This document shows positions 43,988 to 64,000 of a stretch of DNA of 64,000 nt, in pieces. Positions within the stretch are counted from its first letter, which is position 1. Every line of letters starts with the position of its first letter. This DNA is from Escherichia coli (GTDB lineage: Bacteria; Pseudomonadota; Gammaproteobacteria; Enterobacterales; Enterobacteriaceae), in NCBI RefSeq assembly GCF_003991155.1, contig NZ_CP031293.1; one strand, 5' to 3'. A program made the translations under genes and the position numbers. A model generated the notes under the pieces. That model did no database searches. It was given only the letters and a program-made list of their open reading frames with translations, and was not told where the DNA came from.

Positions 43988-44932
43988 ATGAGTCCTGATA
44001 ATATCGGTTCGGCTGTCAATCGCTTCTCAGGTTGGCCATCTAATGATCCTCTAAAAACAGATAACGAATCAATGACATCACCCGTGACTGTGCAGGTAAT
44101 AAAGATGATTGCCGCCATCCTTGACCCATATCGGATAGTCGTTGGAATCGATACACTTTATACAACGCAGCGCGAAACATTTACCTCAGAGAGTCAACAG
44201 CTCATTGAATCAGCATTGCAAACACTTCATGTGATAAATTTAAATAACCTGGAAACAAATCTCGATGAGGACGGTCACTATCTGGCTTTTGGATATAACG
44301 TTGACACTCCTGACAGAATAACCGTTTCTGCTTATAATGAAAAAAAGCCTGGCTGCTATGGCCAATGTCTTTTAATACAGGATGACGAAACAGACTTATT
44401 TAACCTGATAAAAGTTAAAATTTTTGAAGCCAGGCATAATTATGTCGCTCAATTGATGAGCGATCCGGAATTTATGTTCAAATTTAGTTATAGCGCTCAA
44501 CAAAATAGATTAGAACCTCATCTTCTGGTTCCCACTTATTTCCCTCTAAAAACAAACGAACCGGTTACGCAAGAGGATGTACTGTTACTTTATCGTTTCT
44601 TTAAAATGGATGGTGATTTTAATATATTAACATCAGATGAATACATGAGTATCATGACACCTCTGATGAAGTGTGAGCGCAGCATCCACGACCACAACAG
44701 GTATGTGACGGGCAAAGATACCCTTCTTCTGGACTATCCTCCTTCTGGTAACCAGATATATTTCCATATTTTTCCTGACGAATCAGCAACACTAGTCCTT
44801 TATTTTTCAAACAATGACATTGAATGTTTCGTCTTTGAAAGAGATATTCCGAGCCAGTATCGCTTTTTCAAAATGTTTACCAATCTGGCACTGGTTATTG
44901 ATCAGTTAACCGATGCCAATCAAATACTTTAA
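43988..44932 (+). CDS. Hypothetical protein, 314 aa; no family recognised, no signal peptide or TM segment seen
   Basis: Long ORF in visibly AT-rich DNA. GAGG lies 7 nt upstream of the ATG. The motif YRFFKM occurs twice (aa 202-207 and 291-296). Confidence 0.7.
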   Translation: MSPDNIGSAVNRFSGWPSNDPLKTDNESMTSPVTVQVIKMIAAILDPYRIVVGIDTLYTTQRETFTSESQQLIESALQTLHVINLNNLETNLDEDGHYLAFGYNVDTPDRITVSAYNEKKPGCYGQCLLIQDDETDLFNLIKVKIFEARHNYVAQLMSDPEFMFKFSYSAQQNRLEPHLLVPTYFPLKTNEPVTQEDVLLLYRFFKMDGDFNILTSDEYMSIMTPLMKCERSIHDHNRYVTGKDTLLLDYPPSGNQIYFHIFPDESATLVLYFSNNDIECFVFERDIPSQYRFFKMFTNLALVIDQLTDANQIL

Positions 44933-45012
44933 TTTTTATATATTCCCTGTGGCAAATATTGCTAAACAATGCCCGGGGATTAATTTTTATTACTCACGGA
45001 AAGATTTAAATA

Positions 45013-45435
45013 ATGATCCCATCTCAAATCTCTTTCAACACCCTTCCTGTCAATGCAACATACGCTTCAGAGACAACAGTTGACACACAAAAATTCTCTG
45101 ACATCCTCTACTCAGCGGGGTGTTCCCTAAAGGATCTGGCTTATCTGAGCAGATGTCTGGCATCAATACATCCGACTATCGCCAAAAACATTTATGAAAC
45201 AGAAAATCTCAGCGATCAAAAATTACTACATATTGATTGCCGTAGTACAAATGAAATCAAGATAAATATCTTTTTTGGTCAACAACGAGAAGGATTAATT
45301 GAAATTAATTCTGACACTGTCATTTTTTCGATATTGTCTTCATTAATTGACTCCGCCATTTCTAAATTTCAACACCAAATCCCCGTTAACGGTTCAGTTA
45401 ATCGTGAACTATTGTATGAGGATTATACTGATTAA
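45013..45435 (+). CDS. Hypothetical protein, 140 aa, acidic; no family recognised
   Basis: ORF 80 nt downstream of the 314-aa gene on the same strand, with the same AT-rich composition. Weak Shine-Dalgarno (GGAAAG). Confidence 0.6.
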   Translation: MIPSQISFNTLPVNATYASETTVDTQKFSDILYSAGCSLKDLAYLSRCLASIHPTIAKNIYETENLSDQKLLHIDCRSTNEIKINIFFGQQREGLIEINSDTVIFSILSSLIDSAISKFQHQIPVNGSVNRELLYEDYTD

Positions 45436-45981
45436 ATCCACCCAGTCGCGAAAATGGCCTGCGTTATTGCCAGAGGTAATAAAACCTTTGATTAACGTTA
45501 CTCATACTGGTAGCACCTTCATGTACCTCTCTTTTTTACGAAAAATCAAAAGAGCTAACTAAGGTCATAATTCGCATGAATCATTAACCATTTGTTATTT
45601 TCAACATTATTTTTACATTAAGCAGAGATGAATTGCAGTGAAATTCGACTTAAATTTTATGAAATGCATTTACTCATGGCTAAACCCATATCACTAAAAT
45701 GCAAATTAGAAGTAGATCACAAATACCTCAATACACCAAATCAAGTTAATTTTAAAAATTTAACATTCATGACATTAGTTGACATAACACACTGAATTAA
45801 CATGAGAATTTAACAACATACTTTAAACAATCATTTCCCGAAAGACATTTTGAAAATAGATCAATTGCAACATTACGGTCAGATAAAGACACTCCTGTGA
45901 TATTAAACCTGTGCCGTTATGAACGGCCATAAATACGACGTGTGTAACTTATTTTACTCTCTGTCTTACAAAGGATTACCC

Positions 45982-46431
45982 ATGAAGAAAGCAACACTTG
46001 TGATTGGCGTTATTGGCGCGGACTGCCATGCAGTAGGCAATAAAGTTCTGGACCGCGTTTTTAGCAACCATGGCTTCAGAGTCATTAATCTGGGCGTAAT
46101 GGTCAGCCAGGACGAATATATTGATGCGGCCATTGAAACTGGCGCTGACGCGATTGTCGTCTCCTCTATCTATGGGCATGGCGATATCGACTGTCTGGGC
46201 ATGCGCGAACGCTGCATCGAGCGTGGACTGGGGGACATCCTGCTCTATGTGGGCGGTAACCTGGTGGTCGGAAAACATGACTTCGCTGACGTGGAAACCA
46301 AATTCAAAGAGATGGGATTTGATCGCGTCTTTGCCCCAAGTCATGACTTAGAAGATGTTTGTCAGCTGATGGCACACGATATCAACCAACGTCATGACGT
46401 TGATACTCGTATTCTTGAAGAGGCAATCTGA
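45982..46431 (+). CDS. glmS: Glutamate mutase (methylaspartate mutase) small B12-binding subunit sigma, 149 aa
   Basis: ORF 45919..46431 trimmed to the ATG at 45982 after [29 protein letters not shown] carries the DxHxxG cobalamin-binding motif and aligns to clostridial MutS/GlmS. Not the glucosamine-6-P synthase glmS. Confidence 0.88.
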
Positions 46432-63115: not shown

Positions 63116-63219
63116 GAAAAAGTCTCCTGCAAAATGAGAGGTCATTTTTTGAAACAGCAATAGAGGGTCGGGAGATATTTCTCTCGACGATGTAAAAATA
63201 TTTTTTGATAATTATTGTT

Positions 63220-63247
63220 ATACAGGCGAATTATTCTCCGCCTGTAT
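63220..63247. other. 9-bp inverted repeat between hutU and the permease gene (terminator, attenuator or protein site)
   Basis: ATACAGGCG-10 nt-CGCCTGTAT, 32 nt downstream of the hutU stop. Confidence 0.35.
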
Positions 63248-63278
63248 TAGCGCAAATATTAAATGACGGCGTTAATAT

Positions 63279-64000
63279 TTAGCGAATCATCGGTAATTTC
63301 AGACCATAGTTTTTGGCACATTCAATTGCCGCTTCATAACCCGCATCCGCATGACGCATAACCCCGGACGCACAGTCATTCACCAGCACACGCGCCAGAC
63401 GTTTTTCGGCTTCTTCGCTACCATCGGCAACAATAACCATCCCGGCGTGTTGTGAATACCCCATCCCGACGCCGCCGCCATGATGCAGGGATACCCACGT
63501 TGCTCCCCCTGCAGTGTTGAGCAAACCGTTGAGCAACGGCCAGTCAGAAACCGCATCACTGCCATCAAGCATGCTTTCGGTTTCGCGGTTCGGGCTGGCG
63601 ACAGAACCGGTATCAAGATGATCGCGCCCAATCACAATCGGTGCTTTTAGTTCACCGTTGCGCACCATTTCGTTGAATGCCAGCCCCGCCAGGTGACGCT
63701 CACCAAGCCCCAGCCAGCAAATACGTGAAGGAAGTCCCTGGAAGGCAATGCGCTCGCGCGCCATATCCAGCCAGCGATGCGTCAGTACGTTATTGGGGAA
63801 CAACTCTTTAATTTTGGCATCAGTTTTATAGATATCTTCCGGGTCGCCAGACAGCGCCACCCAACGGAATGGACCTTTGCCTTCACAAAACATTGGACGA
63901 ATATAAGCCGGAACAAAGCCCGGGAAATCAAAGGCATTTTGCAGACCTTCGTTGAAGGCCACCTGGCGGATGTTGTTGCCATAATCGACAACCGGGATCC
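63279..64000 (-). CDS. hutU: Urocanate hydratase, C-terminal ~240 codons (gene continues past the right edge)
   Basis: The frame stays open to position 64000 (...[55 protein letters not shown]...[18 protein letters not shown]...), typical of urocanase. Confidence 0.9.

Follow-up and report, generated by a model that had tools for sequence, protein, structure and literature searches.

We analyzed the block that lies beyond the cydA control region in a 64,000-nucleotide stretch of the Escherichia coli contig NZ_CP031293.1; this whole stretch is called the window below. The block is composed of two adjacent catabolic modules located in the variable sucD-cydA interval, namely a glm (methylaspartate) module at 45982-56964 (module 1) and a hut-like module from 57235 to ~64976 (module 2). 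The genes named in an earlier note on this DNA are all present and intact, in the orientation and at the positions given there, as confirmed by an open reading frame listing and profile searches of the window. The plus-strand set runs from glmS (45982) to cobO (56025), and the minus-strand set starts with hutU (~64976), reaches the lyase gene (57235), and ends with lysR (56964-56059). The earlier note had placed these two convergent sets directly beyond the cydA region; the convergence holds, with a hairpin at the meeting point, but two orphan genes that it had not listed, hyp1 and hyp2, intervene. The closest complete genome, E. coli 2016C-3878, is 100% identical except for an IS1 inside hyp2, and there the remainder of hutU, an RtcB-family gene, the sdhX region, and sucD are seen beyond the window end; the insert as a whole thus occupies the sucD-cydA interval. 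The gene identities are of high confidence. As for their function, the best explanation, which we hold to be slightly better than evenly probable, is that the two modules include a hut-like operon in which an exported lyase takes the place of histidase and feeds on histidine betaine (hercynine).

The lyase scores 281 bits against a cut-off of 539 and 298 bits against a cut-off of 524 on the HutH models TIGR01225 and NF006871, respectively, which is about 250 bits short, and its best match in the PDB is the Treponema denticola ergothionase (6s7j, E 5.5e-85; 7e-50 for the histidine ammonia-lyase (HAL) of Pseudomonas). The 4-methylideneimidazole-5-one (MIO) cofactor of the ammonia-lyases cannot form because the Ala-Ser-Gly triad is missing, with GSIGAADIM in place of the GSVGASGDL of the Pseudomonas putida HAL, and no sequence among the 120 closest homologues has it either. 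The lyase does keep Tyr77 for catalysis, His117 and Glu466 as ligands of the imidazole, and Gln308, Arg314, and Asn344 as ligands of the carboxylate. In the alignment, Ile438 takes the place that Lys384 occupies in the Treponema enzyme; histidase has Val there, and 103 of the 120 homologues have Lys. Two recent preprints, one of them bioRxiv 10.1101/2025.08.13.670108, indicate that the MIO-less family members are trimethylammonia-lyases needing an N-trimethyl leaving group, and that the ergothionase Lys (Lys384 in the Treponema enzyme) binds the thiolate and is essential for activity; the equivalent residue is Asn in the histidine betaine lyase Swoo_3913 and Gln in SO_3299. With the ligands conserved and the Lys replaced, the substrate would thus be a histidine derivative that is N-trimethylated and lacks the sulfur at C2. 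Because the next enzyme of the operon is a true urocanase, the one simple candidate is hercynine, and by chemical logic hercynine alone among N-trimethyl compounds yields urocanate on trimethylamine elimination. The predicted reaction is hercynine to urocanate and trimethylamine, an assignment that derives from active-site logic and the E. coli operon context, not from orthology to an assayed enzyme.

Compared with the cytoplasmic enzymes, the lyase possesses a 23-residue N-terminal extension, MKGLIRRVTVTVVLWSVCSIAMA, followed by KS, that has a positive n-region, a hydrophobic core, and an A-M-A cleavage motif of the A-x-A type. The 85% and 68% identical relatives keep the character of this signal peptide, as do nearly all Lys-type homologues, and the extension is missing from the Enterococcus clade and the Treponema enzyme. 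An AAGGAA Shine-Dalgarno sequence is located 7 nt before the long start (ATG at 58905), whereas the shorter start has none; some NCBI proteins begin at Met22 (535 aa) and thereby drop the signal peptide. The characterized Shewanella enzymes carry leader peptides and are described as periplasmic in the preprints on trimethylammonia-lyases, and the E. coli lyase is probably periplasmic as well. Export by the Tat route is less likely, since the Arg-Arg pair is not kept in the 85% identical homologue.

The remaining enzymes of module 2 lead from urocanate to glutamate. HutU reaches 670 bits on the thiourocanate hydratase models, under both cut-offs (880-930), and neither HutH nor HutC is found among the genes between cydA and sucD. 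The four-step Hut pathway proposed in the earlier note thus stands for HutU, HutI, and HutG, ending in glutamate, but not for its start: the set cannot begin from histidine because it has no histidase and its sole lyase lacks the MIO triad. Homologues of the permease, 60-70% identical, are spread across Proteobacteria and Actinobacteria, and a 65% identical one is situated in the Comamonas testosteroni hut locus, in the order hutC-hutH-hutC-permease-hutU-hutD-hutI. On contig L008, an 85% identical permease directly adjoins the 85% identical lyase, with hutU, hutI, and hutG not nearby. A urocanate-specific transporter of Pseudomonas, HutTu (PA5099), is cited in PMC12977541, and urocanate is the species probably carried by the permease here. 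Comparison of two alleles ~3% apart shows that the lyase (dN/dS 0.036), the permease (0.05), hutU (0.027), hutI (0.10), and hutG (0.125) are under constraint, within a range of 0.03-0.13; hutD is relaxed (0.55), its constraint being much weaker than that of its neighbors. Within the literature searched, this hut-like operon is undescribed.

In the proposed mechanism, the lyase would remove trimethylamine from hercynine in the periplasm to form trans-urocanate, the NCS1 permease would import the urocanate, and the cytoplasmic HutU, HutI, and HutG would convert it to L-glutamate and formamide. The glutamate might serve the cell directly or, with corrinoid available, be fermented by module 1. The steps after urocanate that the earlier note proposed, and the connection by way of glutamate, are plausible. 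We infer both hercynine as the substrate and any flux from module 2 to module 1; judged from the sequence, the substrate and the periplasmic mechanism are a little more probable than the contrary, and a real flux coupling from hut to glm, held with lower confidence, is about evenly balanced. The coordinates of all features are collected in Table 1.

Table 1. Features of the sucD-cydA insert, in window coordinates, with the matches on which each assignment rests.
Feature	Position	Strand	Match or remark
hyp1, orphan, 314 aa, ~35% GC	43988-44932	+	between cydA control region and glmS
hyp2, orphan, 140 aa, AT-rich (~35% GC)	45013-45435	+	split by IS1 in 2016C-3878
glmS, B12-binding S subunit of glutamate (methylaspartate) mutase	45982-46431	+	NF002612 253 bits (cut-off 110), TIGR01501 246 bits (cut-off 136); RefSeq start used
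glmL, mutase reactivating chaperone	46431-47819	+	NF040745 508 bits (cut-off 475)
glmE, catalytic E subunit of glutamate mutase	47838-49283	+	TIGR01503 865 bits (cut-off 390)
mal, methylaspartate ammonia-lyase	49283-50524	+	TIGR01502 544 bits (cut-off 286)
cmlA, citramalate lyase large subunit, AtuA/DUF1446 family	50528-51898	+	PDB 9erq_A E 2.8e-292, full length, roughly 90% identical (alignment inspection)
cmlB, citramalate lyase small subunit, DUF4387	51895-52212	+	PDB 9erq_B E 5e-57
DAACS-family dicarboxylate/amino-acid:cation symporter	52373-53653	+	PF00375 343 bits; below DctA and GltP cut-offs, substrate not assignable
fumD, class I fumarase/mesaconase	53761-55413	+	NF011921 1286 bits (cut-off 1060)
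cobO/cobA, ATP:corrinoid adenosyltransferase	55423-56025	+	TIGR00708 247 bits (cut-off 168)
G+C-rich hairpin, 11 bp stem, terminator-like	56029-56055	both (bidirectional, strong)	between convergent stop codons of cobO and lysR
lysR, LysR-family regulator, GcvA-like	56059-56964	-	PF00126 and PF03466
MIO-less trimethylammonia-lyase, ergothionase/histidine-betaine lyase family, 556 aa	57235-58905	-	best PDB match 6s7j
hutG, formimidoylglutamase (to glutamate and formamide)	58956-59906	-	TIGR01227 292 bits (cut-off 229)
hutI, imidazolonepropionase	59906-61117	-	TIGR01224 451 bits (cut-off 298)
hutD-family protein	61114-61695	-	PF05962 107 bits
NCS1-family permease, predicted urocanate importer, HutTu-like	61706-63115	-	PF02133
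hutU, urocanate hydratase	63279-64000+ (to ~64976)	-	3' part only in window; full-length L001 protein TIGR01228 934 bits (cut-off 375)

Module 1, as encoded, is the already known O157-type enterobacterial methylaspartate operon in complete form. The O157:H7 cluster was described by Kronen and Berg in 2015 (PMC4682846), who identified FumD as a mesaconase/fumarase, reported the cluster in 26.5% of E. coli strains, and left the fate of citramalate open. The window shares with it the glmS-to-lysR order and the chromosomal site, and the DNA of this cluster is ~98.6% identical to the O157:H7 copies. The two genes that follow mal match the chains of PDB 9erq/9evf, deposited as "Citramalate lyase, subunit A (cmlA)" and "subunit B (cmlB)"; a literature search on DUF4387 retrieved nothing, and the identity came from the PDB. 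The Raoultella version of this two-subunit enzyme was used as a lyase converting citramalate directly to pyruvate and acetate in bioRxiv 10.64898/2026.01.16.699985. With the DUF1446/DUF4387 pair being CmlAB, the operon thus encodes a route from glutamate to pyruvate, acetate, and NH3. GlmSE with adenosylcobalamin would convert L-glutamate to methylaspartate, with GlmL as the chaperone and CobO as the adenosyltransferase supplying adenosylcobalamin; Mal would then release NH3 to give mesaconate, FumD would convert mesaconate to (S)-citramalate, and CmlAB would cleave citramalate to pyruvate and acetate. The earlier note had read the glm set as the methylaspartate route from glutamate, which is borne out, and via CmlAB (PDB 9erq) the route runs on to pyruvate and acetate. 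In a scan of glmE loci with one genome per species, cmlA-cmlB is located directly 3' of mal in Enterobacterales, Propionivibrio, Azoarcus, Spirochaetales, Saccharicenans, Ozemobacter, and Sedimentisphaerales, often with a FumD-like gene, and the clostridial-type loci have no cmlA-cmlB. The methylaspartate pathway is therefore completed in two distinct ways, by CmlAB or in the clostridial manner.

In most Enterobacterales loci with the cluster, lysR is convergent after cobO, or after fumD where cobO is missing, and it is retained in glm-only E. coli. The regulator is evolutionarily part of the glm module; the earlier note had its strand right, but its grouping with the hut genes is not upheld by this conservation with glm in other genera. 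A perfect palindrome with 11-bp arms (GCCATTACTTA-GCAA-TAAGTAATGGT) and a T-run is located at 57002-57027 on the minus strand, 38 bp upstream of the lysR start, and could be a hut-operon terminator or a LysR operator.

Among 5426 complete E. coli genomes, the glm module is present in 1138 (21%) and the hut module in 144 (2.65%). We found hut and glm in one contiguous match in 143 of the 144 hut-positive genomes, the remaining one having hut split in two pieces, and the physical adjacency of the two pathways that the earlier note stressed is thereby confirmed. That note also took independent occurrence of the two halves in most strains as evidence against its reading. The same genomes show such independence in one direction only: most glm-positive E. 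coli (87%) lack hut, and hut without glm is essentially absent. In the glm-only strain CEC13004, homology to the window breaks off at 57372, after 137 bp of the lyase gene counted from its 3' end; next come a 62-bp lyase fragment, a 57-bp rtcB fragment, the last 41 bp of rtcB, and then sucD. This scarred junction is common to 833 genomes, and its lyase and rtcB remnants show that the common glm-only form arose by deletion from a glm+hut+rtcB form. O157-type strains likewise have only remnants downstream of lysR, where the window has the hut-like operon and rtcB, and their glm half is otherwise not different in substance. K-12 keeps only mng in the interval, another type has a TPR pseudogene, and strain 382634_2f (NZ_CP039403.1) holds all cassettes in series: cydA, hyp1, hyp2, glm, lysR, hut, rtcB, mngB, mngA, mngR, and sucD. 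The statements in the earlier note that K-12 has mngR-mngA-mngB at this locus and neither glm nor hut, and that O157:H7 has the glm cluster, are both correct. The sucD-cydA interval appears to be a cassette array (hyp, glm, hut, rtcB, and mng) trimmed differently by lineage, which would explain the K-12, O157, and present configurations and suggests that these are different deletion derivatives of a longer array.

Outside Escherichia, the glm module is present in about 25 other Enterobacterales species, including Citrobacter, Salmonella enterica subsp. arizonae and diarizonae, Klebsiella oxytoca and michiganensis, and Pseudescherichia, and in all of them it occurs without hut in the sequence covered. 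It lies beside cydA in 17 loci, which are all those in which cydA was seen; sucD was also seen in seven of them. Neither tblastn nor a sensitive blastn found lyase or hut remnants beside glm in other genera, with ~1.2 kb past lysR covered in most loci. Given its position next to cydA without hut across genera, glm is an old resident of the interval, and the hut module is an addition of the Escherichia lineage. The view of the earlier note that the block is one metabolic island is accordingly not sustained; the glm-hut coupling exists, but it is confined to Escherichia and dispensable, and the glm module does not need hut. In an uncultured Enterobacter genome (L025), mng and glm occur together.

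If module 2 were an ordinary four-step Hut operon, L-histidine would be degraded to glutamate and then fermented by the methylaspartate route as in Clostridium tetanomorphum. HutU, HutI, HutG, and a member of the aromatic amino-acid lyase family are indeed present, and the succession from Hut to methylaspartate is documented in gut Firmicutes (bioRxiv 10.64898/2026.06.22.733842). The public records are inconsistent: the lyase is labeled a HAL/PAL/TAL ammonia-lyase, and one RefSeq genome (strain 98218) has it as hutH, histidine ammonia-lyase. However, every characterized ammonia-lyase of the family needs MIO, for which the triad is lacking here; the HutH equivalog cut-off is missed by a wide distance; the MIO-less Swoo_3913 does not deaminate histidine; no other histidase gene lies in the cluster, the part of the genome that was searched; and E. 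coli serves as the non-histidine-metabolizing control in the same preprint on Firmicutes. We regard degradation of histidine by this operon as very improbable. The lyase might also be an ergothionase, cleaving ergothioneine to thiourocanate and trimethylamine, and the basis of the 1962 'ergothionase from E. coli'. Its nearest solved relative is an ergothionase, most of its close homologues carry the ergothionase Lys, and the window gene is an ergothionase homologue, though a 2026 review (PMC13405746) states that none is known in E. coli and considers the 1962 report questionable. Opposed to this are Ile438 in place of the Lys essential for ergothionase activity, the identity of HutU as a true urocanase below both thiourocanate hydratase cut-offs, and the composition of the operon, which has no desulfhydrase or hydantoin-propionate enzymes. 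E. coli W, our guess at the 1962 strain, has a K-12/mng-type locus without the lyase, and no link to the Wolff report is established. An ergothionase is improbable, less so than a histidase.

A further alternative is that the operon mainly scavenges urocanate, for which the permease, HutU, HutI, and HutG are sufficient, and that the lyase takes another N-trimethylated histidine derivative or contributes little. The permease homologues in ordinary hut loci are in keeping with this, as is the varied and unpredictable specificity of the lyase family, exemplified by SO_3299. The strong purifying selection on the lyase and its position beside the permease even without adjacent hutU, hutI, and hutG (L008) speak for a contribution of the lyase, and a methylated urocanate would probably be no substrate for a canonical HutU; we consider scavenging unlikely. 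The two modules might, finally, be metabolically unrelated, their adjacency reflecting the history of a deletion-prone, cassette-accumulating interval, and this has a chance just short of even. The interval holds mngRAB, the TPR pseudogene, glm, hut, and rtcB in varied combinations, including mng, glm, hut, and rtcB in series in one strain; glm is conserved across genera without hut; hut has been deleted in most glm-positive E. coli; and the operons are convergent without a shared regulator. In contrast, one module makes the substrate that the other uses, and hut is essentially never without glm in E. coli, though shared ancestry could account for that.

Several observations weigh against the hercynine explanation and the coupling of its product to module 1. 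SO_3299 acts on N-pi-methyl histidine betaine and accepts neither hercynine nor ergothioneine, and it has no Lys either. In a neighbor-joining tree of a reduced set, the Ile/Val-type lyases (the Escherichia and Enterococcus groups) form one clade (161/200 bootstraps, 80%) that is nested in the Lys-type periplasmic lyases and contains no assayed member. Asn does not occur at the Lys384 position in any of the 120 closest homologues; Swoo_3913 is thus outside this set, and its specificity is not transferable by orthology. Other Ile/Val members are situated in contexts without hutU: the cytoplasmic Enterococcus lyases (L005/L006) have a sigma-54 activator, a CoA-transferase, an MFS transporter, and an NMO-like flavoenzyme/reductase as neighbors, a neighborhood that may represent a CoA-dependent route reducing the enoate, and the 68% identical relative on a Pseudomonas-like contig lies among hydroxyproline-type genes. 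In the interval from cydA to sucD, the hut operon has neither HutC nor a recognizable regulator; the two operons converge, with a terminator-like hairpin after the glm operon; and no condition was found in PMC4682846 in which the O157 glm genes are expressed. Conservation also lends no support to a glm-hut coupling, in view of the other species and the majority of glm-positive E. coli in which glm lacks hut.

Compared with Swoo_3913 of Shewanella woodyi (bioRxiv 10.1101/2025.08.13.670108), the window lyase is likewise MIO-less, has a leader peptide, carries a neutral residue where ergothionases have Lys, and shares the catalytic Tyr, His, Gln, Arg, and Glu, with closely matching residue numbers; urocanate is the product in both, as a prediction in the present case. 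The two differ in that Swoo_3913 has Asn439 and the window lyase Ile438, and they probably belong to different subclades. Their partners differ as well: Swoo_3913 is combined with a periplasmic urocanate reductase, urocanate being a respiratory electron acceptor that is not imported, whereas the window has a permease and the cytoplasmic HutU, HutI, and HutG. The ergothionases SO_3057 (Shewanella oneidensis, periplasmic) and that of Treponema denticola (cytoplasmic, 6s7j) are of the same family with the same MIO-less chemistry, but they carry the thiolate-binding Lys that the window lyase lacks. Lys-type periplasmic homologues are 53-62% identical to the window lyase and include one in Escherichia albertii, and a protein match of 96% identity is recorded for E. 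marmotae. In E. albertii (L092), the Lys-type exported lyase is accompanied by flavocytochrome c genes and adjoins pstSCAB-phoU, which is the respiratory arrangement described for Shewanella and unlike the window; this lyase-flavocytochrome cluster gave no megablast match in the 5426 E. coli genomes.

In the case of the canonical hut systems (Klebsiella, Salmonella, Pseudomonas, and Comamonas), module 2 shares HutU, HutI, the formamide-releasing HutG, and HutD, and its NCS1 permease adjoins hutU as in Comamonas testosteroni. The canonical systems have HutH and HutC, however, and the entry enzyme of the window is predicted to be exported and to release trimethylamine instead of ammonia. In Clostridium tetanomorphum and Blautia coccoides (bioRxiv 10.64898/2026.06.22.733842), the same succession from urocanate through glutamate and mesaconate to pyruvate and acetate is encoded, but there it starts from histidine with a true histidase and utilizes a two-subunit mesaconase and a CitDEF-type citramalate lyase, whereas the window has another entry substrate and utilizes FumD and CmlAB.

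Taken as a whole, the view that ~2.65% of E. coli, together with E. marmotae, possess an undescribed assimilatory histidine-betaine route, in which trimethylamine is released in the periplasm, urocanate is imported, and glutamate is fermented by the B12-dependent operon, is tentative and stands somewhat below an even chance. The described periplasmic lyases of the family all feed respiratory reductases, and the wiring proposed here leads to a permease and cytoplasmic catabolism, that is, to assimilation. If it is true, some gut E. coli would make trimethylamine from dietary or ergothioneine-derived betaine, and the silent glm operon would gain a physiological glutamate source. Trimethylamine from gut bacteria is the precursor of trimethylamine N-oxide, and a hercynine-cleaving E. 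coli would be a new source of it. The only ergothionase-family gene in E. coli would also have been identified, which bears on the 1962 ergothionase report; the gene contradicts the statement of PMC13405746 on homologues, though ergothioneine is probably not the substrate of its product. Together with Enterococcus, these E. coli share the Ile/Val subclade, an uncharacterized specificity group in a family for which the descriptions of known members all date from 2019-2026. From the annotation as HAL/PAL/TAL or hutH and from the short starts, readers would wrongly infer histidine utilization in these E. coli.

The orphans hyp1 and hyp2 have zero family matches in Pfam, NCBIfam, PHROGs, and PADLOC. 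The hyp1 gene is relaxed (dN/dS 0.59), occurs in glm-only and glm+hut E. coli alike, and is missing from other glm-bearing genera; both orphans are E. coli-specific additions. On the other side of the insert, the RtcB-family paralogue between hutU and sucD (465 aa; L001 35326-36723, ~65734-67131 in window numbering) scores below the NCBIfam cut-offs and had no match in PADLOC, its stop codon abuts the start of the K-12 sdhX-region homology, and fragments of it persist in O157-type strains. A perfect FNR-type box (TTGATTTATATCAA) is located at 43520-43533 in the cydA upstream region, within the 373 bp that are still homologous to K-12; this stretch is only ~81% identical to most E. coli genomes and is thus unusually divergent for a conserved promoter region. 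The box was the sole perfect site, nothing convincing was found upstream of glmS or hutU, and the total of FNR boxes was not above the shuffled expectation. Rfam (E up to 0.1, 43000-64000) gave a chance miRNA match only, and a cobalamin riboswitch was not found. Elsewhere in the window, a tandem cluster of tRNA-Lys and tRNA-Val genes at 33375-34090 gives internal repeats, and copies of a 35-bp element at 28466-28500, REP-like in appearance, are present at several places near sdhB and sucA in other strains.

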